From: an uncultured virus (IMG/VR IMGVR_UViG_3300021375_000026)
Taxonomy: Duplodnaviria; Heunggongvirae; Uroviricota; Caudoviricetes
IMG/VR virus record: IMGVR_UViG_3300021375_000026
DNA length: 20,000 nucleotides
Strand: one strand, 5' to 3'
The notes beneath the pieces were generated by a model. The model was not told where the DNA came from. It was given only the letters and a program-made list of their open reading frames with translations, and did no database searches. Within the stretch, counting starts at the first letter, position 1. Every line of letters begins with the position of its first letter. The position numbers and the translations under genes were made by a program. Below, piece by piece: positions 1 to 19,826 of this stretch.

Positions 1-20
1 TCGAGGCTAAGAAGGCCGAT

Positions 21-635
21 ATGGAAACGGCTCGAAATAACATGGCTCTAGGCATCAAATATTCATCTAGGTCACTAGGCGGCCACACTACTCAATATCG
101 AAAACTGATGAGAGAAGCAGGTCTTGAAATCGTAGTTATTTCTACGCCAAAAGTAACCCCTCAAGTCGGCAAACCATGCCGTTACAAAGCCTGTAAAGGT
201 CGCAACCACAAGGCACACGGTGAGAAGTGTCCGGTTGCATCTAGTAGAGGCAAAACAGGCGGCCAAAACGGTCAAGGTGAAGTCAAGGCAAGAGTCGGTT
301 CATTGAATGGCCGATTTACAGGATTCCGTGAATGCGGTTGTCCTCAAAGGCAACATCTTCCAACCTGCCCGAAAGCGGGATTATCAGCCGCTAAAATTGC
401 CCTCATCAATGAGGCTGTTAGTATTAAGAAAATAATAAATATCAGTCCGGTAACATGGAGACATTCAGCCGATTGTATCACTACCGAGGCAGTTAGTTTT
501 ATGCTAAAAGGAATAACAGGCGTATGCTCGGGCTGTAAGATTGAGATGCCTGCTATCAAGGCGGCAAAGGTTCACAAGAACGATATTAGAGAGGCTAAGA
601 TGCGGGTAATATGCGACGCTTGCGATACACAATAA
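21..635 (+). CDS. Basic Cys/His-rich multi-zinc-finger hypothetical protein (probably 5'-truncated by the window edge)
   Basis: Motifs CRYKAC..H..H..C, CGC...H..C, CSGC and CDAC. The frame is open upstream of ATG21 to the window start (GAG GCT AAG AAG GCC GAT). Confidence 0.6.
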   Translation: METARNNMALGIKYSSRSLGGHTTQYRKLMREAGLEIVVISTPKVTPQVGKPCRYKACKGRNHKAHGEKCPVASSRGKTGGQNGQGEVKARVGSLNGRFTGFRECGCPQRQHLPTCPKAGLSAAKIALINEAVSIKKIINISPVTWRHSADCITTEAVSFMLKGITGVCSGCKIEMPAIKAAKVHKNDIREAKMRVICDACDTQ

Positions 636-647
636 GATAGTTTTAAG
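616..647 (+). promoter_or_regulatory. ACGCTTG-box + TATA promoter P1
   Basis: ACGCTTGCGA at 616 and TTTAAG at 642. ATG672 is 30 nt after the TATA start. Confidence 0.8.
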
Positions 648-671
648 AGTAAAGGATAAGGAGAGAGATAT

Positions 672-1094
672 ATGACAAGAACGAGACACGGCAGACACGG
701 AGAAATATGCAAGAGACAAAACGGAAGAATAATGATGACTGTAAGACCGACACCATCGGTTTTAGATGATACAGATATAGCCATGCTTATCGGTTATATT
801 ACTAGTGTACGCAGACCGGATTATTATAGTGAAGAAGTTATATCCAAATCTGATGCTAAACAGGCAATACACGATTGGGAATATAATACAGGTAGTATTA
901 CACCTTTGACAAAGAAAATGCTTATGAATTATCTAACAAGTAATTATTACTTAGCACAAATTGAAGAACAAACCGATTTGATTGATACCTATGATGAAGA
1001 TTGTGGGGTATGTCAAGCATTGTTAGAAAGAGTACATCAGATATTCCCTTCTTTTGTGGTAAAAGAAATAAATGACGCTTGTGAGGCGGAATAA
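672..1094 (+). CDS. Hypothetical protein
   Basis: 140-aa ORF directly downstream of P1, with AAGGAG upstream. Confidence 0.7.
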   Translation: MTRTRHGRHGEICKRQNGRIMMTVRPTPSVLDDTDIAMLIGYITSVRRPDYYSEEVISKSDAKQAIHDWEYNTGSITPLTKKMLMNYLTSNYYLAQIEEQTDLIDTYDEDCGVCQALLERVHQIFPSFVVKEINDACEAE

Positions 1095-1106
1095 GATAGG
1101 TTTAAG
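1075..1106 (+). promoter_or_regulatory. ACGCTTG-box + TATA promoter P2
   Basis: ACGCTTG at 1075 and TTTAAG at 1101. 1090-1113 matches 631-654 at 22/24 nt. Confidence 0.8.
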
Positions 1107-1146
1107 AGCAAAGTACGTTTAGAGACAAATACAAGGAGAGAGAAAA

Positions 1147-1497
1147 ATGATATACACAAGAATAGGAAAATACGGAATGATAGACGCATTTAGAAAATAC
1201 GGGCGATTGAAAACTAGTGAGACGCATGGTAATTTTACCGAAGAAGCAATTGAGGCGTTATTCGATTATTATGATGAGATGGTTGGAGAGCATTATGAAA
1301 TATCGCAGGCTTATGAATTAGACGTTATAGGTATTTGCTGCGAGTGGACTCAATATGATGACATAGACGAAGTTAAAGAAACGTACCTAGATACAAAGCA
1401 AGAGACATACGATTCTGACGATGTTTTTGAGTACCTAGAAGATAACACCTATCACATCGTTTTAGACGATGATTCAATATTAGTGAGGGGTTTTTGA
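1147..1497 (+). CDS. Acidic conserved phage hypothetical protein
   Basis: AAGGAG SD. The F..EA..ALFDYY and ELDVI.ICCEW.QY patterns are recalled from small phage early proteins. The C-terminal two thirds are D/E-rich. Confidence 0.75.
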   Translation: MIYTRIGKYGMIDAFRKYGRLKTSETHGNFTEEAIEALFDYYDEMVGEHYEISQAYELDVIGICCEWTQYDDIDEVKETYLDTKQETYDSDDVFEYLEDNTYHIVLDDDSILVRGF

Positions 1498-1836
1498 ATG
1501 TATGGAGAATCCTCGCCTCAACACAAAGAGGGCTTCACACCAATAGGTGTTTATGATGTTGAAGGTGTAGGTCTATGTACGGGTGTATCATTCGCAGAAA
1601 GACAGACCGCTTCTTTCACAGGAAAACCACCTGTATTCTATGAATGGGCATACATTTGCGACACTTGCACTTACGAAGAAGATGAATGTAAATGCGGTGA
1701 TGATAATTCACCTTTAATTAGGGCTAAAACTAACTATTCAAAAGCGAAATATACGACGCTTGAGAAGCAGGAGGCGACACCTTTAAGAGTGGAAGCCTCG
1801 AGGACAATTCACCCAACAAACAGGGAGGAACAATAA
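1498..1836 (+). CDS. Hypothetical protein with a CxxC-x5-CxC Zn-binding motif
   Basis: Starts immediately after the upstream stop, with a GAGGGG SD; contains CDTC....ECKC. Confidence 0.65.
   Translation: MYGESSPQHKEGFTPIGVYDVEGVGLCTGVSFAERQTASFTGKPPVFYEWAYICDTCTYEEDECKCGDDNSPLIRAKTNYSKAKYTTLEKQEATPLRVEASRTIHPTNREEQ
1756..1787 (+). promoter_or_regulatory. ACGCTTG-box + TATA promoter P3 (inside the 3' end of the upstream ORF)
   Basis: ACGCTTGAGAAGCA at 1756 and TTTAAG at 1782; precedes the DUF932 gene. Confidence 0.8.
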
Positions 1837-1837
1837 C

Positions 1838-2815
1838 ATGACAATGAGAAACATGATGGCGGCAATTGGCCGCTTTGGAAATGACGCACAAGGAACGACT
1901 GCCGAAGAGGTCTTGGCTAACGCCGGACTAAACTTCGATGTGGCAATAGAGCCACTATATACCTCTAAAGGTAAACCGATTAGGTCTAAGTTTAATCGTA
2001 TCTTTAGAACTGACAATGACACAACACTAGGTGTTGTCGGTAAAACGTATGTACCAATGCAAAATGATAGATTATTAGGTATTGCTAACGAATTAGTACA
2101 ACGTGGAAAGATTGATTGGGATAGAATTGGTATGGTTGGAGAAGGAGAGAAATTATTCGCTTCTTTCAAACTGCCGGAAGGATTTACAATTAGCGGTTGG
2201 GATGATGTAGACCAATACATTTACCTTACAAATACGCACGACGGTAGCGGTGGAATTAGAGTAATTCCTAGCAACGTAATTATCGGATGCTCTAACCAAT
2301 TCAGTCATCTAATGGCAGGTATCAAGAGAGCAGGCATTGACCCTAAGAAATTAGTAATACGCCATTCAGCAAAGCAAGAAGAGAGAGTAGCGGAATTAGT
2401 CGAGGCATTAAAAGTAGTGGATATGCTCAACCAACAATTCGTCTTAGACGCTCAAGAATTAGTTAACATTGAGATGACTCAAGAAGAGAGAGTATCTTTT
2501 TACCTAGATACTTTTGGGATAAAACAAAATGAAGAGTTAGTGGATGCGGCTAATCCTCTAGGGCTTACTACAAGAGGCAACAACACACTAGAGAAATTAC
2601 TAGAGGTCGAAGCACACCCTACCAACAACCACAACGGCAACGGTTCTAGTGCCTTCGCTGCCTTCAATACAGCAACGTACTACATAGACCACGAATGGAC
2701 ATTCGACCGTAAAGGTGAGAAGTCTAACGACAAGAGAGTCGAGTCGGCAATCATGGGTACAGGCTCAAGAATGAAAGCAAAGGCGTGGGAGTCTCTAGTA
2801 GGAGATTACCTATAA
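1838..2815 (+). CDS. DUF932 / TIGR03299-type phage/plasmid protein
   Basis: Family motifs AGLNFDV, RTDN..LGVVG..Y.P.QN, YLTNTHDGSG, CSN and IRH; GGGAGG SD. Confidence 0.85.
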   Translation: MTMRNMMAAIGRFGNDAQGTTAEEVLANAGLNFDVAIEPLYTSKGKPIRSKFNRIFRTDNDTTLGVVGKTYVPMQNDRLLGIANELVQRGKIDWDRIGMVGEGEKLFASFKLPEGFTISGWDDVDQYIYLTNTHDGSGGIRVIPSNVIIGCSNQFSHLMAGIKRAGIDPKKLVIRHSAKQEERVAELVEALKVVDMLNQQFVLDAQELVNIEMTQEERVSFYLDTFGIKQNEELVDAANPLGLTTRGNNTLEKLLEVEAHPTNNHNGNGSSAFAAFNTATYYIDHEWTFDRKGEKSNDKRVESAIMGTGSRMKAKAWESLVGDYL

Positions 2816-2980
2816 GCATAAACTCAAGTGAGGTTGGCGAGGCTACATAAACAGGTGGTAGTCCAAAACCGTAACCGATATGCACAGGGAAGGAGTAAAG
2901 ACACGATGATTAAGAGTCACACGTTCTGATAAACGAGTCACTGATAATAAATAGAGCATTAAGAAGTCGGATAAGCCAAC

Positions 2981-3014
2981 ACGCTTGAGAAGCATACTAC
3001 TACAACCTTAAAAG
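2981..3014 (+). promoter_or_regulatory. ACGCTTG-box + TATA promoter P4
   Basis: ACGCTTGAGAAGCA (identical to P3 over 14 nt) at 2981 and CTTAAAAG at 3007. ATG3036 is 29 nt later. Confidence 0.75.
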
Positions 3015-3035
3015 TAAAGTCGGAGTCGAAGTACC

Positions 3036-3149
3036 ATGAGATACAATAAAATGTCATGCAAACAATCCGGTTGCCCTAGAGTTATAGGCGAACAAAAATG
3101 TAGAGTATGTGGTAAAAATTACGGAACAGGAAGGAGTGAAGAAGAATGA
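3036..3149 (+). CDS. 37-aa zinc-finger microprotein (not in the ORF track)
   Basis: MRYNKMSCKQSGCPRVIGEQKCRVCGKNYGTGRSEEE. Starts at the leaderless position of P4 and overlaps the next ORF by ATGA. Confidence 0.7.
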   Translation: MRYNKMSCKQSGCPRVIGEQKCRVCGKNYGTGRSEEE

Positions 3150-3250
3150 ATATAAAAGAAAAGATTTTTCATATTGCTATGTGTATGGAAGCGGCTGATG
3201 GTGAATACATGAGAGGATTTATTGACGATTTATTAGAGGTGATTGAATGA
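3146..3250 (+). CDS. 34-aa microprotein (not in the ORF track)
   Basis: MNIKEKIFHIAMCMEAADGEYMRGFIDDLLEVIE; ATGA overlaps at both ends and GGAGTGA SD. Confidence 0.65.
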   Translation: MNIKEKIFHIAMCMEAADGEYMRGFIDDLLEVIE

Positions 3251-3816
3251 ATATTTTTATCCTAAATGAAAACCCCGAATTAGCGGCGAGAGATTACTGT
3301 AATAAACACCTACCAAAAATGACTGTCGAGATGCTTCAAATGCTAGGTAGTGCCGTGATTAGGCACGGTGCTACACCCGACATGATGCCACTTACTAAGA
3401 AAGGTACACCTCTCAAGGGTGGCTATCATAATCATCCGTGTACTCGATGGGTAGGCGACAGTAGCGATAATTACGTTTGGACTGTACGTCATGCCCTAGA
3501 GATATGTAAAGAATACACTAACAAGTATAACAAAATACATTTTTGCGAGGCAGGTATTCGACACCTTAGTAATATGGTAAAAGTAATTCCCGAAGGCAAT
3601 CGTACACATTTTGCTCTTGCTATGCCCGATGAGTATAGACCCGATTATATGACTGCTGTAAGTAAGCCCTTTGCTGTAATAACAGACGATGAAAAAGGTG
3701 TCATCAGTCATGCAAGAGGCGAAGAAGCAATACAGGCTTATAGACGCTATTATCACAGTAAAGAGTTTGCTACGTGGGATGACCGTAAAGTACCTCATTG
3801 GTGGGTGATTAAATGA
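3247..3816 (+). CDS. Pyrimidine-dimer DNA glycosylase / endonuclease V (DenV)-like protein
   Basis: MNIF.L...P..AA...C.KH..KM..E..QML, H.NHPCT.W...S..NY.W and AY R.YY motifs; GAGGTGA SD. Confidence 0.75.
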   Translation: MNIFILNENPELAARDYCNKHLPKMTVEMLQMLGSAVIRHGATPDMMPLTKKGTPLKGGYHNHPCTRWVGDSSDNYVWTVRHALEICKEYTNKYNKIHFCEAGIRHLSNMVKVIPEGNRTHFALAMPDEYRPDYMTAVSKPFAVITDDEKGVISHARGEEAIQAYRRYYHSKEFATWDDRKVPHWWVIK

Positions 3817-3917
3817 CTAATGAATTAGCAATTAAAATTGCTGAGGCTGATTTGACCCTTGAACAATTACAATTTTTGAAAATCATTGTTGATTTGAAAC
3901 TTGAGGTGATTGAATGA
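3813..3917 (+). CDS. 34-aa microprotein (not in the ORF track)
   Basis: MTNELAIKIAEADLTLEQLQFLKIIVDLKLEVIE; ATGA overlaps at both ends and GGGTGA SD. Confidence 0.65.
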   Translation: MTNELAIKIAEADLTLEQLQFLKIIVDLKLEVIE

Positions 3918-3994
3918 GAGACGATGACTTCTCACAAACTATTATCTTAATAGTATTATCATTAGTATGTATATTAGTAGGTGTATTATTATGA
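3914..3994 (+). CDS. 26-aa single-pass membrane microprotein
   Basis: MRDDDFSQTIILIVLSLVCILVGVLL; GAGGTGA SD and ATGA overlaps at both ends. Confidence 0.6.
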   Translation: MRDDDFSQTIILIVLSLVCILVGVLL

Positions 3995-4185
3995 TAAAAG
4001 AAAAGTGTGAACATCCGGCAAGTGGTACTTGTGTTTGGTCTGTAATAAGAGTTTTTTCAGTAAGTGCGGTATCAGACAATAGATTATTGACCGAATGTGA
4101 TGTTGAATGTCTCAAGTGTGGTACAAAAAAATATGTAGTATCAAGTGGTAATATATTAGAAGATGGAGTGACATACGATGAGTAG
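3991..4185 (+). CDS. Small Zn-ribbon protein (CxH...CxxC)
   Basis: Start revised from 3967 to 3991 (ATGA overlap); contains KCEH and CLKCG. Confidence 0.65.
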   Translation: MIKEKCEHPASGTCVWSVIRVFSVSAVSDNRLLTECDVECLKCGTKKYVVSSGNILEDGVTYDE

Positions 4186-4210
4186 TTTTTTCTTAAATAA
4201 AACTCAAGAT

Positions 4211-4256
4211 GAGGGGGCGGCTATATTTTCCTCCTTTTTCAATAGCCGTCGCCCTC
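4211..4256 (+). other. GC-rich RNA hairpin with a pyrimidine loop (terminator or sRNA candidate)
   Basis: GAGGGGGCGGCTAT (4211-4224) pairs with ATAGCCGTCGCCCTC (4242-4256): 14 bp with one G-U pair and one bulge. Confidence 0.6.
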
Positions 4257-4260
4257 TCAC

Positions 4261-4293
4261 ACGCTTGCGTAGCGTAGTGAAAACCCTTATAAA
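4261..4293 (+). promoter_or_regulatory. ACGCTTG-box + TATA promoter P5
   Basis: ACGCTTGCGT at 4261 and CTTATAAA at 4286. ATG4315 is 29 nt later. Confidence 0.8.
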
Positions 4294-4314
4294 AAAAGAC
4301 ATGGAGGACTAGAT

Positions 4315-4578
4315 ATGAGAAATACAGACATAACAACACACGGCATAAAAGAGATACGAATAGCGGCAGTTAATCGCGACATACCCAATTTAGTGAAGAT
4401 TCATATAATGGGTATAGATGGTAAAAAAAGTAAAATCTGTTTATTCTTTGAGGACAAAATTGATATTGGCTTAGATGCCGAATTACCTATCGAGTGGGTT
4501 GGAAACATGAATGTTCTAGGTGATACAGAAGTGCGTGGTGAATCCGTACATTGGACATTGGAGGATGAGGAAGAATGA
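4315..4578 (+). CDS. Hypothetical protein
   Basis: 87-aa ORF after P5, with GGAGG upstream and an acidic tail. Confidence 0.7.
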   Translation: MRNTDITTHGIKEIRIAAVNRDIPNLVKIHIMGIDGKKSKICLFFEDKIDIGLDAELPIEWVGNMNVLGDTEVRGESVHWTLEDEEE

Positions 4579-4874
4579 ATGAACATACATGGGAAAAACT
4601 AGACGCTGATATGAGAAGCGACATGGCTGAGGAATACATACAAGAAAAATGTGAACACGAAGATTTGTACCTTAATAATATAACGGTAAAAATACAATCA
4701 AAGCCCGTTGGCGATTTAGATACTTGGAAAAGATACTTAGCAAAAAATGGTACAGAATTATTTGAAGTATATGTCGAATTAGTGTGTGAAGAGTGCGGTG
4801 CTACTCAAGAGCAATACATAGACATAGGTGAGATAATGTATGATTGGACAGAACCTTGGGAGTGGGAAGAATGA
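4575..4874 (+). CDS. Acidic Zn-ribbon protein (CxH...CxxC)
   Basis: Contains KCEH and CEECG; ATGA overlaps. Confidence 0.7.
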   Translation: MNEHTWEKLDADMRSDMAEEYIQEKCEHEDLYLNNITVKIQSKPVGDLDTWKRYLAKNGTELFEVYVELVCEECGATQEQYIDIGEIMYDWTEPWEWEE

Positions 4875-5020
4875 AGCAGTCAGAAGTGAATAAAATTGTA
4901 GCCCAACATTATCAAAGTTTTCTTTTAGGGAAAGAGTATGATGTGCTTCAAGATTCATGGCGTGGCTTCTTACTTCATGTCAATCAGATAGTAAAGGAGA
5001 TGACTGAAAATGGGGAGTAG
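4871..5020 (+). CDS. 49-aa hypothetical microprotein (not in the ORF track)
   Basis: MKQSEVNKIVAQHYQSFLLGKEYDVLQDSWRGFLLHVNQIVKEMTENGE; ATGA overlap and fills the gap between neighbours. Confidence 0.65.
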   Translation: MKQSEVNKIVAQHYQSFLLGKEYDVLQDSWRGFLLHVNQIVKEMTENGE

Positions 5021-5414
5021 GCGACCACGAAAGCAAATGCTTGACTTCTGTTATAGATACATACAGGACAATGGTATTCAGACAAGTAAAGAATTACTTT
5101 CGGCTTACGAAAAACAGGATTGTACCACAAAGAAAACAGGCCATTGTAGTATCAAAGAATTGAGTATGACTCTATCCAAAAATAAACTTTTCTTTAGGAC
5201 AAAAGAAAGTTTTGGGGTAGACCATAATAAAAATAAGATTTACAAATATGACATACGTGATGTTAATGAAGTAGCCCGTAAGTTAGCCTCATTAACTCAT
5301 ATGCAAACCGAGCCTAAACATTTTCCTAGAATACTGAAAGACGCATACGACGCTTGCATAGCAGAACAGAAGTCTTTAAGACCTATGGGCGTTTCGGTAG
5401 GAATAAGGGAGTGA
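5010..5414 (+). CDS. Winged-helix DNA-binding protein (paralog of 8716..9087)
   Basis: Y.YI...G...SKEL helix pattern. YDIR and HFPRILKDA align with WDVR and RFPKFLRDA in 8716..9087. Confidence 0.6.
   Translation: MGSRRPRKQMLDFCYRYIQDNGIQTSKELLSAYEKQDCTTKKTGHCSIKELSMTLSKNKLFFRTKESFGVDHNKNKIYKYDIRDVNEVARKLASLTHMQTEPKHFPRILKDAYDACIAEQKSLRPMGVSVGIRE
5350..5380 (+). promoter_or_regulatory. ACGCTTG-box + TATA promoter P6
   Basis: ACGCTTGCATAGCA at 5350 and TTTAAG at 5375. Confidence 0.75.
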
Positions 5415-5420
5415 AGCAGA

Positions 5421-5513
5421 ATGCCTAACAAACAACAAAACAAAGCAAGAAAATATAGATACAATATGAAATACAAAGTCCGTAAGGCAAATGTAGGAAG
5501 TGAAGAAGAGTGA
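5421..5513 (+). CDS. 30-aa basic microprotein (not in the ORF track)
   Basis: MPNKQQNKARKYRYNMKYKVRKANVGSEEE; GGAGTGA SD and a GTGA overlap with the next ORF. Confidence 0.55.
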   Translation: MPNKQQNKARKYRYNMKYKVRKANVGSEEE

Positions 5514-5749
5514 ATAAAGAAGAAATAAGATTAAAAAATAAAGAATTAAGAACGAATGCCCCTATACCCGATGGTGTGGAAGATATTAGAGGTGTAACCT
5601 TTAGCAACATACACAATCTTGTTACAATGACAATTGTAAGTAGTTGGGTTGGAGATGAAGGCGTAGTACTATGGACTTCCGAAGCGGGAGAAATATACTC
5701 GACTAGAAATATTAAAGCACATTGGTTAAGGATAGGTGAGGTAGAATGA
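5510..5749 (+). CDS. Hypothetical protein
   Basis: GTG start overlapping the upstream stop; ATGA overlap downstream. Confidence 0.65.
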   Translation: MNKEEIRLKNKELRTNAPIPDGVEDIRGVTFSNIHNLVTMTIVSSWVGDEGVVLWTSEAGEIYSTRNIKAHWLRIGEVE

Positions 5750-5871
5750 ATAGTGATGAATTAGATTATATATGCACGTTTATATGGTACGTCCACCATC
5801 GAGAGCCTCTTGATGGTGATGACATTGAAGATATAATGAGAGCCTTGAAAGAATGGAATGGAGATGAGTAA
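5746..5871 (+). CDS. 41-aa acidic microprotein (not in the ORF track)
   Basis: MNSDELDYICTFIWYVHHREPLDGDDIEDIMRALKEWNGDE; GGTGAGG SD. Confidence 0.6.
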   Translation: MNSDELDYICTFIWYVHHREPLDGDDIEDIMRALKEWNGDE

Positions 5872-6037
5872 GATGGGTAGTATAACGATAAAAGTAAAAA
5901 TAGAAATTGAAGAAGAAATAGAGATTGACGCAGATGATTTGATACACCAAAGCATTGATGATTACATGGAAGATGTAATAGATAATCCATCGGATTACGT
6001 AGACATTATGAATGGTATTGATTGGGAGTTGGCTTAG
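5864..6037 (+). CDS. 57-aa highly acidic microprotein (not in the ORF track)
   Basis: MSKMGSITIKVKIEIEEEIEIDADDLIHQSIDDYMEDVIDNPSDYVDIMNGIDWELA; its stop abuts ATG6038. Confidence 0.65.
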   Translation: MSKMGSITIKVKIEIEEEIEIDADDLIHQSIDDYMEDVIDNPSDYVDIMNGIDWELA

Positions 6038-6229
6038 ATGAGTAAAAAATTGTTAGTAAGATATGAAGTTATGGTGACTGTAAAAGATGAAAGAGAAGCA
6101 GATGAATTGGGTGATGATATTTGGTTGCTTGTTGAAGATAAATTAGGTTATGATTGTGCTATTGAAGTTATAAACAGTGAGACTGAACAATTAATACATT
6201 CTTACCGAACAGATGTGGTGGTCGAATGA
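6038..6229 (+). CDS. Small acidic hypothetical protein
   Basis: 63-aa ORF translationally coupled on both sides. Confidence 0.65.
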   Translation: MSKKLLVRYEVMVTVKDEREADELGDDIWLLVEDKLGYDCAIEVINSETEQLIHSYRTDVVVE

Positions 6230-7139: not shown

Positions 7140-7147
7140 GATGATTG

Positions 7148-7178
7148 ACGCTTGCGACACCGATACGAACCCTTTAAG
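7148..7178 (+). promoter_or_regulatory. ACGCTTG-box + TATA promoter P7
   Basis: ACGCTTGCGA at 7148 and TTTAAG at 7173. ATG7202 is 29 nt later. Confidence 0.8.
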
Positions 7179-7201
7179 TGATAAGAAGGAGACGGAGTAA
7201 T

Positions 7202-7465
7202 ATGAAAAGACACGCAAACACTAGAGCCGCAATCACTAAGGCTCTCAAAGAAAAAGGTGAGCCAATGACTGCGGAAGAAATATACCGAAGCATTGATGTA
7301 AAAAGAAGAGGAAAAAAAGTTAGTAACAGCAAAGCAGTTAGTAACCTACTAAAAGGAATGAAGAATATTAAAGTCATAAAGGCAGGCTTCACGGTCAAAG
7401 GTGATGTCGCTTCTGAATACAAAGTACATAGTTATGTGTATGATGATGAGGGGGCAGAAATATGA
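7202..7465 (+). CDS. Winged-helix (HARE-HTH-like) DNA-binding protein
   Basis: Start revised to 7202. AI.KALKEKGEPMTAEEIY...S.KAVSNLL followed by a beta wing. Confidence 0.65.
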   Translation: MKRHANTRAAITKALKEKGEPMTAEEIYRSIDVKRRGKKVSNSKAVSNLLKGMKNIKVIKAGFTVKGDVASEYKVHSYVYDDEGAEI

Positions 7466-7713
7466 GAAAGTACAGCGAAGTTTTAGCGGAAAAGAAAGCG
7501 GCAGCAGAAGCAGAAAAGGCTAGAGTTGAGAATATGACTGATGAAGATAAAATGCACGAATACCGCATCTTAATTAGTGATATGCGTAAGTACATGAGTA
7601 TAGGTTCATGGGGTAAAAAGACTCCACAGAAAGTAACAAACGAGTTTAGAAGTTTGATGAGTAAAGCCAATGCGGTTCATGTTGAGAGGATGCTATATGA
7701 GTCAGAAGAGTGA
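7462..7713 (+). CDS. Hypothetical helical protein
   Basis: ATGA overlap and GAGGGG SD. Confidence 0.65.
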   Translation: MRKYSEVLAEKKAAAEAEKARVENMTDEDKMHEYRILISDMRKYMSIGSWGKKTPQKVTNEFRSLMSKANAVHVERMLYESEE

Positions 7714-8497
7714 TTACTTTATCCTAAAAGTAAAAGACTTAGAGTTATTAGAAGCGACTCCATACACAAGAGCAGCCGAAGGTAATAGAAGTAAACCATT
7801 TTACAAAAAACCTACAATACTTTTAAGGGATAAAAAAGTAGATAAATATTTTGCTATACTTGATACAAGTATGTTCTCAAGATTTATCATGGCTATGGAT
7901 AGTGAAGTATCATTTTTAGATTGTAACCATTGGCTCTCTTTATCCATAGATGGTGAGTTAGACTTCTATGATTTGATATTATCATTCATACAAGATTATC
8001 CCGATTCATCTTTTGGTGTATGGGTTACTTCGGGTATCATACACGGTATTGATGACGGGGCATGGGATAGTAAAAGTAAATATCTTGTGGAATTATACGA
8101 GCAGTTGCCCGCTTATCTGATGCACAAACCTGCTGATTGGGATTCATACATGAGGATGAGTAAGATAGATGGTAAAATGTACCCGACGCTTGCGTATCAT
8201 AGCGGAAAAAAACACATAGAAATAGTGTGTGCTACACAGCGTACTTACATCGTTGGTAGGTATGAGGTAGGTGATGGGTTTATTCAGCCTGTACGTGCTT
8301 CTATACTACCATTTTGGGCACATCTAGTACCCCTAGAGACATTCCATAAACAGGTCGAAAAACATTTAGACCTACTAAATACTATTGGGGAAAAAGAATT
8401 ACCCGAACAACCATTCACTAAAGCAAGGGCTAATAGTATAGACTTTGCAGATAGAAATAGACTAGAACATGAGAATTATTTATTAATTTTTCAATAG
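7697..8497 (+). CDS. Hypothetical protein
   Basis: Long ORF; start revised from 7670 to 7697 after GAGAGGA; no motif recognised. Confidence 0.7.
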   Translation: MSQKSDYFILKVKDLELLEATPYTRAAEGNRSKPFYKKPTILLRDKKVDKYFAILDTSMFSRFIMAMDSEVSFLDCNHWLSLSIDGELDFYDLILSFIQDYPDSSFGVWVTSGIIHGIDDGAWDSKSKYLVELYEQLPAYLMHKPADWDSYMRMSKIDGKMYPTLAYHSGKKHIEIVCATQRTYIVGRYEVGDGFIQPVRASILPFWAHLVPLETFHKQVEKHLDLLNTIGEKELPEQPFTKARANSIDFADRNRLEHENYLLIFQ

Positions 8498-8527
8498 TTA
8501 GGGAGGCCGCAAAAAGAATTAATCGTG

Positions 8528-8642
8528 GTACTGCGGCTTTATTTTTTAATTTTTTAATTTCTTCAATAGTATGTATGGTAATAGGTTAGTCTCTTAACCA
8601 TTATAGAAGAAATAAAATAAATAAATAATAGGCTCTCAGTAC
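8528..8642. repeat. AT-rich 115-bp imperfect inverted repeat (candidate replication origin)
   Basis: GTACTG (8528) / CAGTAC (8637) and ATTTCTTC (8557) / GAAGAAAT (8606) share one symmetry axis at 8585; a T-tract arm faces an A-tract arm. Confidence 0.6.
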
Positions 8643-8659
8643 AGCGTTTTATTCTTTTG

Positions 8660-8692
8660 ACGCTTGCGGTAATAAAAGAAAATAATTAAAAG
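8660..8692 (+). promoter_or_regulatory. ACGCTTG-box + TATA promoter P8
   Basis: ACGCTTGCGG at 8660 and TTAAAAG at 8686. ATG8716 is 30 nt later. Confidence 0.7.
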
Positions 8693-8715
8693 CGTAATAC
8701 ATAGGTGGAAAAAAT

Positions 8716-9087
8716 ATGAGTAAGAGAAGCGGTGCTTTGAATAAAAGATTTCAAACAGAAGTCTATAATTATTTGAGCGAAGAAGGGATGAAGAACACTA
8801 GAGAAATAACCGATTGGTATAATGAGAGGTTGAATAAGAAGGGTATGAAGGCTAAAGACACCATTTCTTGTATAAGGGCGGCAGCAGTATTGAATAGAAG
8901 CATATTGTTTGAAAAGAAAGGCAACATACCACACCAATATACTTCGGCTAATAATATTATATCTCTATGGGATGTAAGACCGATTGAAACAGCAGTTGAT
9001 AAAGTAATATTATCGAAAAAGCAATTACATAGATTCCCTAAGTTTCTTAGAGATGCAGTAACAAGGAGGGTTGAAAATGCTGAGTGA
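8716..9087 (+). CDS. Winged-helix DNA-binding protein (paralog of 5010..5414)
   Basis: VYNYLSEEGMKNTREI helix pattern and shared C-terminal motifs with 5010..5414. Confidence 0.6.
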   Translation: MSKRSGALNKRFQTEVYNYLSEEGMKNTREITDWYNERLNKKGMKAKDTISCIRAAAVLNRSILFEKKGNIPHQYTSANNIISLWDVRPIETAVDKVILSKKQLHRFPKFLRDAVTRRVENAE

Positions 9088-9856
9088 AAAAATGATACAA
9101 CAAATGAACGACACAGATTTAGTATGGTGTAAAAACGTGTCAGTCGAGCCTACGTCTTTGTTAGTGTATTTTCAAGGAGAACAGGGCTTCGCATCCTTTG
9201 TAGCGTGTAGCGGTCTTGTAGGTGAGGCTAAACCAATCTGTAAGATATTTTCTAAACTACACAACGTAGAGCCAATTAATACTGTACCTAACCCAAGTTT
9301 TGCCGAGTGGAGATTGTATGAAGCATACAATAATATCGGCAGAAGATATTTTATCTTACGTATGTCTCACACGTATGTAGTAAATCAAGATAAAACTAAA
9401 GCATGGTTGTATAACTATCCTGTAATGAGAGATATAGTTTTATCCTTAAACAAACTAGGTGTTGATGAGATGACATATCTTACTACGAATATTATGCAGG
9501 AGTTTATGTATCAAGATACATTACAGATACCCGATAACGACCTGTTGATTTATGACTACCAAGAAAAACCCGACTACTCATTCTTCCATGACAGCGTTGA
9601 GGAAACAAAAAAACAATTGATAGTACCTCCGCCTGCGTGGATGTTTTCAGAAGTCTTTGAAAACTTTTCCCTTAATAATAAAGGTAATTACTTAGTGGTT
9701 TGTAGCAATACAAAAAATACTTTTGTGAATATCAAATCCGTTGATACAATAGTCAAGTTTTTAACCGAGACGCATTTACTGTCTATTGATGCAGACTATA
9801 TGTTGAAAGTTGAAGAGGCACTATTAGATATAGAAGGACATACGGCAGGTGAATAA
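9077..9856 (+). CDS. Hypothetical protein, possibly PAC2 (proteasome assembly chaperone)-like fold
   Basis: AAGGAGG SD before ATG9077. LLVYFQG..G.AS..A...L, I.KIFS, WRLY and I...L..LGV.E...L follow the PAC2 element order. Confidence 0.45.
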   Translation: MLSEKMIQQMNDTDLVWCKNVSVEPTSLLVYFQGEQGFASFVACSGLVGEAKPICKIFSKLHNVEPINTVPNPSFAEWRLYEAYNNIGRRYFILRMSHTYVVNQDKTKAWLYNYPVMRDIVLSLNKLGVDEMTYLTTNIMQEFMYQDTLQIPDNDLLIYDYQEKPDYSFFHDSVEETKKQLIVPPPAWMFSEVFENFSLNNKGNYLVVCSNTKNTFVNIKSVDTIVKFLTETHLLSIDADYMLKVEEALLDIEGHTAGE

Positions 9857-11206
9857 ATGAGTACGCAGATAAGGAGGTTTAATGTCTTTGAAAAGACAAT
9901 AGAGTTTGCACAAAAAAATCATTTTGTGGGAGTCGAAGATAAGATACCTATATTCTTATGTAGTGTCGGAGGACATCTTTTTAATACCTTAAATAAATGT
10001 AGTCGCTGCGACTTCGACCCCGATAGCCCATTGGTGAATGAAGAAGATGGTGATTTCGTCATAGAAAATTGTCCACTAAGACATGACAATATGCCCTTCT
10101 ATACACCTATGTCTCAATTGCCCGATACACGTATTCACATACTAATGAGGGGTGCTAAGGGTAGCGGTAAATCGGTTCTAATTCTTATGTTCCTAGCAGA
10201 AGGTACAGGTTTACTATACAATACTAACCAAGACTTAGGGCAGGGCATGAGAACAATGATGGGTGCTAACTCTATTACAGAAGCAGGTATGTTCGGCTCG
10301 GTTGATGAAGAGGGCAACATAGCAGGTCGCCCTATTGCTAGAGAGATGTGTGGTGGCTTCTTAGGGTTTGAAGAGTTTAGTAGTATGTCTGATGCGTCTA
10401 AAAAAGACCACAGCCTAGATATGAAAAACCAATTACTTACATCCTTAGATAATGGTAGGGTACAAAAAGCCATGAGAAACGGTTGGGTAAATTACACTAC
10501 TAGGTATTCTATTTGGGCGGGTACACAGCCTGCTAGGTTTGAGTTAGACTCCGGTTTGGATAGACGTTTCTTTATCATAGATATAGAGATGACACCGGAA
10601 AAAGAGAGAGCATACAAAATTGCACAGCATCGTCAAGCAAATATGCAGGCAGAAGAAAGGGCAATCTTAGCAAACCTAAACCTAGAGATTAGAACGTGGA
10701 TTAGACAACGTGTAGAAACTGCGGTGGCAAATCCTCCTTCGGGAATAATCTTTGATGATGACATTATGGAATGGATTGACAGGCCGGATGTACGTTCTTT
10801 TGAGGCAGATTTATTCAGAAGATTGTGTATTGGTTATGCTATGATGCAACCGGAATATCGTGGTGGAGAGCCTTTAATAATTAGACTTGATGATACTTTA
10901 ACGGGAATACTAAACCAATCGCTAGCCATGAGAAGAACCGTTATGGATGCAGACCTAGACTTAATACGCTCGGCATTTTGGATGAAGGATATTCCTAAGA
11001 GTCAATTGTTGAAGGAGATTTCTAGGATGATTACTAATGGAGATTATCAATCCGCTAAGAGATGGCTCATAGAAAACCTTGAGTCGCAAACGTGGTACAC
11101 CGAGCATGAGCCTGCTGTAAAAAGGCGTGGTCGTAAAGGTGTTATATGTCGTTTTGGTAATCTTAGTGAGAGTGCCGAGAACCTACAATGGGGGAATAAA
11201 GCATGA
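9857..11206 (+). CDS. MCM-like AAA+ ATPase / putative replicative helicase
   Basis: IHILMRGAKGSGKS (Walker A), ITEAGMFGS (MCM xxAGL-type motif), GGFLGFEEF (Walker B) and LDRRF (Arg finger). Confidence 0.75.
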   Translation: MSTQIRRFNVFEKTIEFAQKNHFVGVEDKIPIFLCSVGGHLFNTLNKCSRCDFDPDSPLVNEEDGDFVIENCPLRHDNMPFYTPMSQLPDTRIHILMRGAKGSGKSVLILMFLAEGTGLLYNTNQDLGQGMRTMMGANSITEAGMFGSVDEEGNIAGRPIAREMCGGFLGFEEFSSMSDASKKDHSLDMKNQLLTSLDNGRVQKAMRNGWVNYTTRYSIWAGTQPARFELDSGLDRRFFIIDIEMTPEKERAYKIAQHRQANMQAEERAILANLNLEIRTWIRQRVETAVANPPSGIIFDDDIMEWIDRPDVRSFEADLFRRLCIGYAMMQPEYRGGEPLIIRLDDTLTGILNQSLAMRRTVMDADLDLIRSAFWMKDIPKSQLLKEISRMITNGDYQSAKRWLIENLESQTWYTEHEPAVKRRGRKGVICRFGNLSESAENLQWGNKA

Positions 11207-11574
11207 GAAAATTAGAAGGTAGATTAAGTCGTCGTACTATGAGTAAACAAAACGACGCTATCAAATGTGCTGCTAGGTATCTTTTAGATAAAAGTACACC
11301 ACGTACTGCTGCTGAGTGTTTTGAACATATGACTTTCAAAAGCGGTAGGTTGTATAGAATTAGTGCTAGGGCTACTACATTAAGGAGACTAGAAAGTAGA
11401 ATGGCTAGACACCCCGTACTCACTAAACATAATACTAACCCAAAAACATATACTTGTACCTTAAAAGAATATGAAGAATATTTTGATTGCGACCCATTTT
11501 ATGACTACACCGACCAAACTGTTAAAAATAAACAATCACACGATAAACCATCAAGGAGACAGAATAATGGGTAA
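11203..11574 (+). CDS. Winged-helix (HARE-HTH-like) DNA-binding protein
   Basis: AARYLLDKSTPRTAAECF...LRRLESRMARHP..K....TY; ATGA overlap with the helicase gene. Confidence 0.55.
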   Translation: MRKLEGRLSRRTMSKQNDAIKCAARYLLDKSTPRTAAECFEHMTFKSGRLYRISARATTLRRLESRMARHPVLTKHNTNPKTYTCTLKEYEEYFDCDPFYDYTDQTVKNKQSHDKPSRRQNNG

Positions 11575-12322
11575 AATTGTCTGTTGGTTTAGTGGTGGTG
11601 TTACTTCAACCGTTGCTACTAAATTAGCGTTAGAGAGATATGATGATGTAGAGATTATATTTTTCGAGACAGGAAGCCATCATCCCGACAATGATAGGTA
11701 TTTTGCTGAGTGTGAAAAATGGTTCGGGCAACCAATCATAGTTTTACAAGATGAAAAACATGAAGATATTTATTCTATTTTTGAGGAAAAAAGATTTATC
11801 AACTCTCCTTATGGCTCACCTTGTACTCAAATATTAAAGAGAAAAGTTAGGCAGAAGTGGGAAGATGAAGTTGACTACAAAAATAATTATGACGGTCAAG
11901 TGTTCGGCTTCGATTGTTCACCAAGAGAATACAAAAGAGCAGAAAGATTTCACAAAGAATATCCGTACACTAAACCACTATTCCCACTAATCGGTTGTAA
12001 TTTAACAAAGGAAGATTGCTTCGATATAATGGAGAGAAACGGTATAGAGATACCAAAAATGTATAGGTTAGGTTACGGTAATAATAACTGTATAGGCTGC
12101 GTCAAAGGTGGTATGGGTTATTGGAATAAGATAAGAATAGATTTTCCCGAAGTGTTTGAAAAGACTGCTTCTTTGGAGAGAGAGATAGGTGCTACTTGTA
12201 TCACAGATAGAAACGGTAATCGTGTATATCTTGATGAGTTAGACCCGAATAGGGGATGGGAGTTAAAACCCTACGTTGAGCCTTGTGGCTCATTTTGTGA
12301 TGATTTAGATGGAGTTGAATAA
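11567..12322 (+). CDS. PAPS-reductase-like (PP-loop, adenine nucleotide alpha hydrolase) protein
   Basis: Start revised to 11567 (AAGGAG SD). Motifs WFSGGVTS, HPDN.R, PCT..LK, FGFD, FPLI, NNCIGCVKGG and CGSFC. Confidence 0.8.
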   Translation: MGKIVCWFSGGVTSTVATKLALERYDDVEIIFFETGSHHPDNDRYFAECEKWFGQPIIVLQDEKHEDIYSIFEEKRFINSPYGSPCTQILKRKVRQKWEDEVDYKNNYDGQVFGFDCSPREYKRAERFHKEYPYTKPLFPLIGCNLTKEDCFDIMERNGIEIPKMYRLGYGNNNCIGCVKGGMGYWNKIRIDFPEVFEKTASLEREIGATCITDRNGNRVYLDELDPNRGWELKPYVEPCGSFCDDLDGVE

Positions 12323-12943
12323 ATGAGGACTAAGAGAGAGATTGAATTAAGATTGCATAACGAGAATGATGCTTTTGTGATAGAAGTATTACGGTGGGTG
12401 CTACAAGGGTCTTGTGATTTTTGCGAACACAAAAACCGTAAAGAGATGGAGTTAGAAGTACACACAGGAGATTCTTCCCCTGCGTATCTTGAAGGTAAAT
12501 ATAATTGGGCTGATGGAACGGTTATGCACCACATGGATTATCACATGGAGTACGACCCTGCCGAAGCCAAACACGTTGAAGAAGCACGTTCTCAATCTAT
12601 CAATACATTAGATGCTGCGGAGGATATTGTTCTTAGGATTCAGTCTTACTTAGATGAGTTAGAGATACGAAAAGAAGAAGAAGGTGGTATTACTTCTGAG
12701 TTTGTAACAGATGCCGCTAGACTTATCGGACAGGCTAATACTTCCTTAAAACTAGTCGGTCAATTGAAGAAAGAGATAGGTGTAGATTCACAATTACTTT
12801 TAGCCCAATTACAAATGTCGGATGTTAGTAGAATCTTAGTAGATGTTCTCGGACACGACCACTTGTTATTGGATAGTGTAGAAAAGAAACTTAATGCTTT
12901 ATCTGCACCTGTTATAGATGTAGAATATAAGGAGGTTGAATGA
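12323..12943 (+). CDS. Zn/HTH + coiled-coil protein (terminase small subunit-like?)
   Basis: CxxCxH..R..ME.....G.S......KY......V.HH...H followed by long helices. Confidence 0.45.
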   Translation: MRTKREIELRLHNENDAFVIEVLRWVLQGSCDFCEHKNRKEMELEVHTGDSSPAYLEGKYNWADGTVMHHMDYHMEYDPAEAKHVEEARSQSINTLDAAEDIVLRIQSYLDELEIRKEEEGGITSEFVTDAARLIGQANTSLKLVGQLKKEIGVDSQLLLAQLQMSDVSRILVDVLGHDHLLLDSVEKKLNALSAPVIDVEYKEVE

Positions 12944-13239
12944 TGCCTAAGAAGTGGAGAAATAAACCTACACGTATGATGATAAACCGTACTTTAGAGA
13001 AAAAAGAAATACCTGATTTGCTTATGGCTATGGCCGAAGATGGCGTTAGTGCGTACATAACTAAAAATGGTATAGCGTGGTATCATGCTGAATACAAAGT
13101 AGCCAAGAATGTTATAGGTGATGTTTGGGGTTTATCCTCAACGCAGATGGACAGGGTAAATAATTACATATATGGTAATGACCCCTTTGTAAGTAGCGGT
13201 ACTAATCTTTATAAACATGAATATGAAAAAAATGACTAA
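12940..13239 (+). CDS. Hypothetical protein
   Basis: AAGGAGGT SD and ATGA overlap. Confidence 0.7.
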   Translation: MMPKKWRNKPTRMMINRTLEKKEIPDLLMAMAEDGVSAYITKNGIAWYHAEYKVAKNVIGDVWGLSSTQMDRVNNYIYGNDPFVSSGTNLYKHEYEKND

Positions 13240-13244
13240 AAAAA

Positions 13245-13892
13245 TTGAAAGGGGGTATAGGCATTATAATTTTTACAAAAGACCCTACACCATTTATGAC
13301 AGGAGATTATCTTGTCATGTATAGGACATTAGATACTGCACCTACACAGGCTAATGTTACTTATATTTTACACACAGATAAGTTTGGGGTAAAAGAAATA
13401 GAGAAATGGTCGCCTATTATACAGAATAAGTTAGTTATTGTTACCGAAAAAGCACCTAAGATAACAAAAAAGATAGAGGATTTAGTTGTCGTTGATGACA
13501 AGTTGCTCATAAAAAATAAGGATAATTATTTCGGTGCTATCAAATCTTTACTTACATGGAATGATAGAAAAAGAGTGAGCAAGGTGTTGCACGACACACC
13601 ACTACCACTAGTTATTGCTTTCTTAAAACAAAATGATGTGGATATAGAAGTGTGGCGTAGTCTAGCGAAAACACATCAAATATTACCGGAAAAATACTCT
13701 AGGGCTTTGTTGACTTACAAGATTAAACCTAAAACTATGAGAGTTAATTGGCCTAAAAAGAAAACAAAGAAAAAAGAACGACCCAATGTGTTTGAATATG
13801 ACGATGAACATTGGGAGATTATAAAGGATAACTCTATAACCGTAGCCAATACCTTACGCAAGCGTAAGAAGGTGTCGGATGAATGGGTGTAA
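13245..13892 (+). CDS. Hypothetical basic protein (possible degenerate clamp-loader large subunit); start uncertain
   Basis: Long ORF with no ATG near its 5' end. YF.AIK.LL...D and P.PLVIAFLKQN resemble the RFC-L collar region. Confidence 0.5.
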   Translation: MKGGIGIIIFTKDPTPFMTGDYLVMYRTLDTAPTQANVTYILHTDKFGVKEIEKWSPIIQNKLVIVTEKAPKITKKIEDLVVVDDKLLIKNKDNYFGAIKSLLTWNDRKRVSKVLHDTPLPLVIAFLKQNDVDIEVWRSLAKTHQILPEKYSRALLTYKIKPKTMRVNWPKKKTKKKERPNVFEYDDEHWEIIKDNSITVANTLRKRKKVSDEWV

Positions 13893-14092
13893 TAGGTTTA
13901 TTAATAATATTACTATATATATATGTGTCTTTTTGGGCTATTTCCATCTTCTTCGATATGGATATGTATGAGATGTTAACAGATACTACTAAAGAATACA
14001 CAAACGCTTGCGAAGCAAAAAGACAAGGTATAAATGAAGGGGATAATTCCTTCGCTGATGCTATTTTTTGGTCGGATTTAGGAAACCATTAA
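13883..14092 (+). CDS. Small membrane protein
   Basis: N-terminal hydrophobic helix VIGLLIILLYIYVSFWAISIFF; AAGGTG SD. Confidence 0.6.
   Translation: MGVIGLLIILLYIYVSFWAISIFFDMDMYEMLTDTTKEYTNACEAKRQGINEGDNSFADAIFWSDLGNH
14004..14034 (+). promoter_or_regulatory. ACGCTTG-box + TATA promoter P9
   Basis: ACGCTTGCGAAGCA at 14004 and TATAAA at 14029; the next ATG is at 14120. Confidence 0.6.
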
Positions 14093-14119
14093 TAAGAAGC
14101 ATAGCGACAACCTTTATAC

Positions 14120-14521: not shown

Positions 14522-14543
14522 CACACTAACGGAGTAGATACAC

Positions 14544-14891: not shown

Positions 14892-14893
14892 TG

Positions 14894-19822: not shown

Positions 19823-19826
19823 TTAC

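Follow-up and report, generated by a model that had tools for sequence, protein, structure and literature searches.

We analysed a 20,000-nucleotide stretch of DNA (hereafter the window) from an uncultured virus of the class Caudoviricetes (IMG/VR record IMGVR_UViG_3300021375_000026), in which all sizeable open reading frames (ORFs) lie on the + strand and in which a short element, the heptamer ACGCTTG followed at a fixed distance by a TATA-like hexamer, recurs in front of genes (Table 1). An initial annotation had described nine copies of this element and had proposed that it is an upstream activating box defining an early viral regulon with leaderless archaeal mRNAs. The nine starts that it gave (616, 1075, 1756, 2981, 4261, 5350, 7148, 8660 and 14004) were all verified on the + strand, as were the TATA-like hexamers 25-26 nt from the first base of the box and the five ATG codons at TATA+29/30 (672, 3036, 4315, 7202 and 8716). 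The list was correct as far as it went, but four copies of the heptamer had been overlooked (8186, 18493, 13865 and 18066). An exact count gives 13 copies, 11 of them on the + strand and only those at 13865 and 18066 on the - strand, against an expectation of 1.38 +/- 1.19; none of 200 dinucleotide shuffles attained 13. When all + strand 7-mers are counted without bias, ACGCTTG shows the largest excess (11 observed, 0.76 expected). In nine of the 11 + strand copies, a TATA-like hexamer begins 25-26 nt after the first base; a hexamer with at most one mismatch is found at +25/+26 from 5.7% of window positions, which gives P ~3e-10 for such an association, and the presence of an ATG at TATA+29/30 in five of these nine copies has P ~5e-5.

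Table 1. Promoter copies, remaining heptamers and principal genes of the 20-kb window (SD, Shine-Dalgarno sequence)
Feature	Position	Strand	Remarks
Copy 1	616..674	+	box 616-632; TATA-like TTTAAGAG 642-649; ATG 672 = TATA+30
Copy 2	1075..1149	+	box 1075-1091; TTTAAGAG 1101-1108; predicted start T/A 1130/1131; SD-like AGGAGAGAG at about 1134-1142 (manual count); predicted leader about 16 nt; ATG 1147
Copy 3	1756..1840	+	inside ORF 1498-1836; box 1756-1772; TTTAAGAG 1782-1789; predicted start C/A near 1810/1811; ATG 1838 = start of DUF932 gene
Copy 4	2981..3038	+	box 2981-2997; CTTAAAAG 3007-3014; ATG 3036 of a 37-aa CxxC mini-protein
Copy 5	4261..4317	+	box 4261-4277; CTTATAAA 4286-4293; ATG 4315
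Copy 6	5350..5423	+	inside ORF 5010-5414 (D-A-C); box 5350-5366; TTTAAGAC 5375-5382; predicted start T/A 5404/5405; ATG 5421 of a 30-aa basic ORF
Copy 7	7148..7204	+	box 7148-7164; TTTAAGTG 7173-7180; ATG 7202 of the 87-aa winged-helix-like protein
Copy 8	8660..8718	+	T-rich stretch, then box 8660-8676; TTAAAAGC 8686-8693; ATG 8716
Copy 9 (doubtful)	14004..14060	+	box-like ACGCTTGCGAAGCA, then TATAAATG 14029-14036
ACGCTTG without TATA-like hexamer	8186..8192	+	inside ORF 7670-8497; excluded from promoter count
ACGCTTG without TATA-like hexamer	18493..18499	+	inside GroEL gene (N-A-C)
ACGCTTG	13865	-	exact match
ACGCTTG	18066	-	exact match
fam2, Cys-rich protein, 3' part	3..635	+	218 aa full-length in L015; directly 5' of first box promoter
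DUF932 protein	1838-2815	+	profile scans
Endonuclease-V-like protein	3247-3816	+	profile scans
Winged-helix-like protein, 87 aa	7202..7465	+	sub-threshold Pfam HTH_20, FUR, WH_Rok; second candidate regulator
PAPS-reductase-like protein	11471-12322	+	profile scans
RFC-type clamp loader	14925-15803	+	profile scans
GroES-like 99-aa ORF	17001-17300	+	by eye only; no match in either scan
GroEL	17310-18854	+	profile scans

Eight of the copies are firm promoter copies. The genes behind them are small non-structural genes of no known function, together with the DUF932 gene, the winged-helix-like gene at 7202-7465 and, behind copy 8, a row of closely spaced genes (8716-13892); no box precedes the genes for clamp loader, GroEL or polymerase. 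Several boxes had been said to encode DAC or NAC inside the 3' ends of upstream genes, and this holds in the ORF frames for D-A-C at 616, 1075 and 5350 and for N-A-C at 14004, but at 1756 the frame reads T-L-E. At copy 1 the box falls within the last codons of the Cys-rich gene at 3-635; this promoter copy is conserved in the related loci L015, L016 and L020. Directly 5' of the copy 5 box, at 4190-4260, an imperfect inverted repeat with a T-rich loop (GAGGGGGCGGCTAT ... ATAGCCGTCGCCCTC) may be a terminator or an insulator between units. The copy at 14004 is doubtful as a promoter: its box-like sequence encodes N-A-C-E-A in ORF 13883-14092, a conserved coding motif, and only a 7-codon ORF opens at TATA+29. 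Among its orthologues, L023 is without a TATA-like hexamer and L032 has one, and the near-identical record G002 has no + strand copy there. The copy at 18493 is probably due to chance or coding. Two mini-ORFs directly behind box promoters, 3036-3149 (37 aa, two CxxC pairs) and 5421-5513 (30 aa, very basic), are easy for automatic annotation to miss.

The initial annotation had proposed conservation of the spacing in related viral contigs as a check, and we recovered 34 related IMG/VR loci with the 189-aa protein encoded at 3247-3816 (35-96% identity). The box was found at the same spacing, in one of three variants, in 19 of the 34. A G-type box, ACGCTTG with a TATA-like hexamer at the same offset, is present in 11 loci (with, for example, all 10 copies in L017 and 12 of the 13 in L043), and L030 has a few boxes of this type. 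An A/T-type, tgACGCTT(A/T)AGAATCA, occurs in four loci whose copy of the query protein is nearly identical (L012, L013, L014 and L018), and a TGG-type, tGCTTGCGTGGTCG, in the three more distant loci L025-L027, where the G of GCTT stands 23-25 nt from the TATA against 24 nt in the G-type. Where orthologous G-type and A-type promoters can be compared, their differences are almost confined to box positions 6-8. The remaining 15 loci may hold further variants, since 14 of them were checked for ACGCTT only (L029 and L033 also for GCTTG[CT]G). An excess of ACGCTT on the - strand of the distant loci L025 and L034-L039 was considered as a motif and rejected as coding bias. A scan of viral_contigs with the pattern ACGCTTG-N18/19-TTTAAGA gave at least 113 stretches with a match; so short a pattern lacks specificity, and the result was not used. 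A literature search with the box 10-mer returned unrelated primer matches only.

To describe the element we assembled 96 unique box+TATA sites from the window and 16 related loci. The offset from box to TATA is 25 nt at 27 sites and 26 nt at 62, that is, 89 of 96. In the G-type (n=55), conservation extends beyond the hexamer used in the search to G8 (54), A9 (47), G11 (42), C12 (46), A13 (41), A15 (42) and A16 (48). The box thus described is about 17 nt long, (t)gACGCTTGcGAaGCAgAA, with conserved positions from -2 to +16, and about 9 nt separate its end from the TATA. Internally it is most symmetrical as GCTT-N3-AAGC; the pseudo-palindrome ACGC-TT-GCG(A/T) proposed for it earlier is weaker. 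The stretch immediately 5' of the TATA is A-rich (consensus aA.AGa) at the place where a B recognition element (BRE) would lie.

Downstream of the TATA the geometry is equally regular. An ORF-opening ATG follows the TATA hexamer by 28-30 nt in 62 of the 96 sites. Since 99 box sites precede 32 different protein families, and the start lies at +28..30 in 23 of the 32, this leaderless-type geometry is not an artefact of counting orthologues, and the geometry suggested for the window recurs in its relatives. All 57 unique sites have a pyrimidine at -1, directly before the promoter-proximal ATG (T in 52, C in 5), and 47 have A at -2; at other SD-led gene starts of the same loci, -1 is a pyrimidine in 58 of 202 (29%). 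The three window copies with a long leader have a pyrimidine-purine step at TATA+28..30 as well, T/A or C/A at 1130/1131, 1810/1811 and 5404/5405. A pyrimidine/purine step at +1 is an archaeal initiator, and it has no role inside a bacterial leader.

Comparison with a close relative suggested that the box is a module of its own. The locus L022 (record G004, 84% complete) and the window have most gene families in common, and L022 keeps TATA, spacing and start region at all five orthologous promoters examined (before the DUF932 gene, 3036, 4315, 7202 and 8716) with no ACGCTT box, unrelated sequence standing in its place. At copy 4, for instance, TATA and downstream sequence are kept and the box is gone; nor does any consensus that could replace a '-35' appear where the box is missing. 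The promoter of 8716 has its TATA without a box also in L012, L014, L017 and L043. By this comparison the box is not part of the core promoter and is separable from it, in agreement with the upstream module first proposed. Its distribution is local as well. The complete 69-kb genome G007 has its 6 copies, all on the same strand, between 22.5 and 31.4 kb (5-6 box promoters); in G002 ten box+TATA copies fall within 2.8-12.2 kb and seven copies elsewhere have no TATA, and the three copies of the nearest record, G001, that lie beyond the window all lack a TATA. Position and gene type make an 'early' regulon a sensible guess and nothing firmer.

The promoter cassettes coincide with breaks in homology. 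Between the window and G002, which are 96-97% identical, homology breaks at 681, 1073, 2966 and 7138, each at most 15 nt from a cassette, and variant DNA contigs of run X1 diverge at 1068/1501, 2981, 8668 and 13891/14004. The gene at 672-1094 has been swapped in G002 for a 36%-identical homologue between two intact cassettes, and near-identical cassettes precede different genes. The cassettes act as joints of gene-module exchange, probably as a by-product of their promoter role. The promoter early stem-loops (PeSLs) of T4-type phages are repeated early-promoter cassettes that also occur at mosaic gene boundaries. The window cassettes likewise stand at homology breaks, whereas PeSLs are sigma-70 promoters with a stem-loop and the window cassette has neither.

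Where transcription would start depends on the nature of the A/T element. An archaeal TATA box would give a start 26-30 nt downstream, no more than 4 nt from the ATG; a bacterial -10 hexamer would give one about 10 nt downstream, and the GGAG-like sequence before the ATG (see below) would be a normal SD. T at -7 is near-invariant in bacterial -10 elements, and the hexamers of the window, read as TAnnnn, end in G or A, not T. In a sigma-70-type scan one of the nine box sites passes (8657), and in the first 10 kb neither sigma-70-type sites (30 found, 34.2 +/- 5.6 expected) nor intrinsic terminators (5 found, 5.3 expected) are enriched. The Sigma70_r2 domain was absent from seven of seven related records, one of them complete, in a search whose control matched in 10 of 14 genomes. 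A search for T7-type RNA polymerase found no match, but its control matched nowhere either, so that this search is uninformative. On the archaeal side, the TATA of the tailed archaeal virus HF2 begins at -26 by primer extension (PMC8707807).

RNA was also available for one copy. In the RNA library X4, the sole contigs on the window cover 1121-1453, directly 3' of copy 2. The main one (1131-1424, 294 nt, depth 28) is identical to the window and starts at TATA+30 of copy 2. The gene at 1147-1497 is therefore probably expressed, and the RNA cover, as seen in assembled contigs only, is no more than compatible with a start near 1126-1131; runs X5 and X6 yielded no usable evidence. Archaeal TATA promoters with mostly leaderless mRNAs are our best reading of the sequence.

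The gene content of the virus points in the same direction. The nearest record, G001 (39 kb), is 99.8% identical to window positions 7453-20000 and carries beyond it a family B DNA polymerase, a PD-(D/E)XK nuclease and an ERCC4+HhH nuclease, with a tape-measure protein, a tail-tube protein and a 2353-aa ORF on the other strand. The tape-measure and tail-tube genes mark it as a tailed virus; the 2353-aa ORF beside the tape-measure gene (L011:1-6485; G001 19324-26385, - strand) matched neither PHROG nor Pfam entries in the 2161 aa that were scanned. In a PDB sequence search the clamp loader matched archaeal RFC small subunits best (1iqp, 2chg; E ~1e-22), ahead of T4 gp44 (E 2e-11) and bacterial gamma/tau (E 6e-8), and among 50,697 phage records the best full-length tblastn matches of the polymerase are haloarchaeal tailed viruses. 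The clade of this polymerase comprises more than 300 clusters, many of them on contigs of 65-78 kb. Philosof et al. (PMC5434244) describe magroviruses as 65-100-kb tailed viruses, assigned to marine group II archaea, with an archaeal-type replication set (DNA polymerase, clamp loader, nucleases) and, in groups B, B1 and C, a bacterial-type GroEL within the replication block; the window virus is alike in its family B polymerase, RFC, ERCC4 nuclease and GroEL within the replication block. The host of this marine virus is thus most likely an archaeon, judging from the sequence, and the archaeal setting first proposed is supported by this gene content and by the lack of enrichment of sigma-70-type promoters or terminators. 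Other attempts to link the virus to a host gave nothing: a polymerase search of genome_contigs found no relative, and G001, G002 and G007 contain no tRNA genes. An Rfam scan of the window showed no family above gathering score. Apart from a bin label discussed below, the organism label found on relatives was 'Prokaryotic dsDNA virus sp.'.

Between the clamp loader and the GroES-like ORF lies a 389-aa protein (15844-17013) with 54-93% identity in four relatives and no family match. We considered it as a virus-encoded transcription factor B (TFB), on a sub-threshold TFIIB match (13 bits, E 0.003) at the N-terminus of the 389-409-aa orthologues in G001, G002 and G004, and rejected this reading because Pfam (E up to 1) and a PDB sequence search gave no support. 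By eye only, its conserved C-terminal part resembles an OB-fold single-strand-binding protein.

A search for proteins that could bind the box gave two candidates. The better one, which we call fam2, is the Cys-rich protein encoded directly upstream of the first box promoter. Its invariant motifs include KPCRYK.CKG..H, KCP.AS.RG and two C-terminal CxxC pairs. The protein is present in the window and in all 12 box loci that extend far enough; homologues with 33-34% identity (E 3e-19 and 3e-17) are found in G007 and G008, which bear the TGG-type box, and it is absent from the boxless G004, with matching positive controls for the search. At least 69 clusters of it occur in marine metagenomes. Its alignment contains three columns that separate A-type from G-type viruses, in too few sequences to interpret. 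We found no Pfam family with E below 0.047 and no PDB sequence match; its Atlas neighbours, with scores up to 0.80, are all unnamed viral proteins, and its AlphaFold model has a mean predicted local distance difference test (pLDDT) of 66 and a predicted TM-score (pTM) of 0.28. From its distribution, fam2 is a candidate box-binding factor. Three points speak against fam2 in this role: about three G-type boxes occur in G005 (69% complete), where no fam2 homologue was found; the link between fam2 and the box may reflect synteny and shared descent only; and fam2 has no recognisable DNA-binding fold, a Foldseek search against PDB yielding nothing with E up to 0.001.

In the L012 group the fam2 gene lies behind another promoter class, CCTACAAAA-N24-TATATATA-N22-ATG, and this second class would, speculatively, allow a two-step cascade. 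Carried further, fam2 might be a new kind of archaeal-virus activator that co-evolves with the box, is made from the second promoter class (CCTACAAAA-N24-TATATATA) and then switches on the ACGCTT-box genes, in viruses of abundant uncultured marine archaea; three protein lineages would match the three box variants, and one lineage would have lost both. We consider this extended proposal doubtful. In relatives, the 3-6 kb 5' of the box regulon are largely non-coding and are packed with a second, lineage-specific short repeat, often in inverted pairs or short tandems (L012:530-3200; L022:1230-6770; G002, reverse strand, 590-2650; L025:20-5340; all of them to the left of where the window starts). 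The repeat is CCTACAAAA in L012 (18 copies), AATCCAAA in L022 (23 copies) and in the first 2.7 kb of G002 (13 copies), and GCTACAAAT in L025 (34 copies); in the window the only copy is on the - strand (6695). The copies are interleaved with G+C hairpins followed by T runs, and several lie about 24 nt 5' of a perfect TATATATA. This second repeat may be a promoter class for small RNAs, or the region may be an origin.

The other candidate regulator is the 87-aa winged-helix-like protein behind copy 7, which is also present, with 62% identity, in the boxless L022. Apart from its weak matches, the Pfam and PHROGs scans named no regulator; no search for Aca8 was made. The proteins 5010-5414, 7202-7465, 8716-9087, 11203-11574 and 14120-14521 have similar basic N-termini followed by a helix-rich segment and look by eye like paralogous winged-helix proteins, with Pfam matches (sub-threshold) only for 7202-7465.

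With moderate confidence, we propose from these sequence patterns that the elements are archaeal-type promoter modules with an upstream factor-binding box, and that the factor is probably a virus-encoded activator. Each unit would be a complete archaeal-type promoter, read by the host RNA polymerase with TATA-binding protein (TBP) and TFB. With +1 taken as the predicted start, about 30 nt after the first T of the TATA, the 17-nt box (t)gACGCTTGcGAaGCAgAA would occupy about -56 to -40, a short A-rich stretch the place of the BRE, and a TATA-like octamer (TTTAAGAG, CTTAAATA or CTTATATA) about -30 to -23, with an initiator-like pyrimidine/A step at the start. In five of the eight window promoters the +1 A would be the A of the ATG, leaving no leader, or one of at most about four bases by the HF2 spacing; the other three would have a 16-27-nt leader with an SD. 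The box would be the site of a sequence-specific factor adjoining TFB and TBP, most likely helping to recruit both, and more likely virus- than host-encoded, with the Cys-rich protein at 3-635 as best candidate. In archaea, activators usually bind 5' of the BRE and repressors on or after the core promoter (PMC5512572). An activator site is favoured because the box lies just 5' of the BRE position at a helically rigid distance, and a virus-encoded factor because the box differs or is missing among viruses sharing most genes. The sequences show directly the motif with its spacing, conservation and variants, and its loss from a relative whose core promoters remain; the archaeal host, the start sites, the activation, the identity of the factor and the early timing are all points that we infer.

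Several observations weigh against this proposal, among them one that the initial annotation had overlooked; the promoter-regulon reading of that annotation is, as a whole, partly supported. Between TATA and ATG, a GGAG-like tetramer stands at -12..-9 of the ATG in 57 of 62 sites, with G at -11 in 49 of 57. Such a sequence is useless on a leaderless mRNA and is what a bacterial -10/SD/ATG layout predicts. With a bacterial host, the box would overlap a -35-like TTGCGA and the A/T hexamer would be -10-like, read by an unusual sigma factor of host or phage, with a 17-nt leader holding the SD before the ATG. The TTG of the box does lie 16-17 nt 5' of the A/T hexamer. A depth-5 fold-back contig of X4 carries the RNA cover to 1121, 10 nt 5' of TATA+30, and the end at 1131 may be an assembly branch point. 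GroEL is bacterial-type, and Vibrio and Flavobacterium phages also carry GroEL genes; DUF932 is frequent in mobile elements of bacteria; and one related 69-kb contig sits in a public metagenome bin labelled 'Legionellales bacterium', to which we give little weight. We nevertheless regard a bacterial promoter as very unlikely. The hexamers end in G or A, a single site of nine passes the sigma-70 scan and such sites are not in excess (30 against 34.2), Sigma70_r2 is found in none of seven records (one of them complete), and the replication genes are archaeal-type; in L022 the A/T element remains and the '-35' is gone, with no consensus in its place; the invariant pyrimidine at -1 (57/57) would have no role in a bacterial leader; and the five cassettes of 62 that have no SD keep their ATG at +28..30. 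Under the archaeal reading the GGAG may serve read-through transcripts, because no run of at least four T is present in the 60 nt 5' of five of the eight firm boxes, or it may be a promoter-proximal element. Less probable still, and hardly credible in our view, is a cassette that is mainly a recombination joint for gene-module swaps, with any transcriptional role of the box secondary. The homology breaks of G002 within 15 nt of cassettes, the divergence of X1 contigs at 1068, 2981, 8668 and 14004, and the different genes behind near-identical cassettes are what such a joint would leave; a joint has no need, however, of a fixed TATA/ATG distance, of a single strand or of box positions conserved across 35-96% protein identity, and exchange at these sites is compatible with archaeal promoters and probably their by-product.

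If the promoters are archaeal, the box could still be something other than the site of a viral activator. Mutation of the corresponding alpha block in HF2 left basal promoter activity unchanged (PMC8707807), so that a conserved upstream block need not be an activator site, and a virus-encoded activator of the very first genes would need packaging or another promoter class. A repressor operator, used for shut-off or autoregulation over a constitutively strong core and bound, for example, by the winged-helix-like protein 7202-7465, would accommodate the HF2 result; it would also suit the boxless orthologous promoters of L022, which indicate that the core can stand alone, and the position of this regulator gene behind its own box, and in Sulfolobales viruses early-promoter sequences are tied to Aca8 and to putative inverted-repeat-binding repressors (PMC11065993). 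We consider an operator a rival to be taken seriously but rather improbable, since the box ends about 9 nt 5' of the TATA and overlaps neither BRE, TATA nor start, the usual sites of archaeal repressors, and since the rigid 25/26-nt spacing (89/96) is expected for contact with TFB/TBP and not for simple occlusion; the winged-helix protein, moreover, is present in the boxless L022. Alternatively, the box might be bound by a host factor, or might enhance TFB/TBP binding without any factor, and so mark strong constitutive promoters. The earliest genes have to be read before any viral protein exists, fam2 has no known DNA-binding fold, and Sta1, a host-encoded activator of viral promoters, offers a precedent (PMC1635249). 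Close relatives, however, differ in the box or have none while most genes and core promoters are common to them, and in the complete 69-kb genome the box is restricted to a region of about 9 kb, which makes a host factor unlikely.

The pattern as such is already known and is not a new principle. The closest system consists of the class I intergenic repeats of the tailed archaeal virus HF2, which form several promoter units of about 58 bp (Russ, Pfeiffer and Dyall-Smith 2021, PMC8707807). Each unit has a 14-bp alpha block, a beta block with a TTTAAG TATA (the same hexamer as in the window) and a gamma start region with GAGG downstream; promoter activity and start sites were demonstrated, and the genus as a whole conserves both the repeats and their positions. 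The upstream blocks of HF2 and the window are without sequence similarity; the alpha block stands 8 nt from the TATA T run, against a gap of about 9 nt after the 17-nt box here, which begins 25-26 nt from the TATA. The 7 copies of HF2 are spread genome-wide, some before tRNAs or long operons, against 8-12 copies here in a 9-kb block of small genes, where the ATG is mostly at the predicted start. In SIRV2 and other Sulfolobales viruses, too, many unrelated small genes share a conserved sequence around the core promoter (PMC11065993). Its flanks differ among relatives, which is taken there as a sign of different virus-encoded regulators, and the pattern has been used to predict early anti-defence genes. 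These viruses differ in their Crenarchaeota hosts, their morphotypes, a near-identical strong BRE/TATA inside the conserved part and the regulator Aca8, whereas the window virus has a discrete box 5' of the BRE position. Among cellular systems, Ptr2 (M. jannaschii rb2), TFB-RF1 (P. furiosus pf1089), the EarA boxes (fla) and the Sulfolobus ara-box are sites immediately 5' of BRE/TATA that recruit TBP/TFB (PMC5512572). The window box fits this class by position; these are cellular regulons whose factors are identified or inferred, often with weak BRE/TATA, whereas the element here is viral and multi-copy and has only a candidate cognate factor. What the present data add are natural box variants, a boxless relative and a candidate factor. 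In the library searched, nothing was found in print on promoters or gene control of these uncultured viruses: no paper there combines magrovirus with promoter, and the latter word is missing from both magrovirus papers that were searched for it.

The motif offers a sequence-only handle on one regulon, giving transcription units and probable leaderless starts and flagging about 30 small-gene families as co-regulated. By analogy with the Sulfolobales viruses, the genes behind the box are candidates for a role in host takeover or in anti-defence. With its box variants and a boxless relative, the group offers a natural mutational series for the contact between an upstream factor and TBP/TFB, and, if the extended proposal for fam2 were true, these viruses would have a cascade built wholly of add-on boxes 5' of host-type TATA promoters. 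The promoter grammar itself, with a TATA at -30 and a pyrimidine/A step at the ATG, is independent evidence for archaeal hosts of a large group of 65-70-kb polymerase-B viruses, and the pattern is useful both for annotation and for inference of the host domain.

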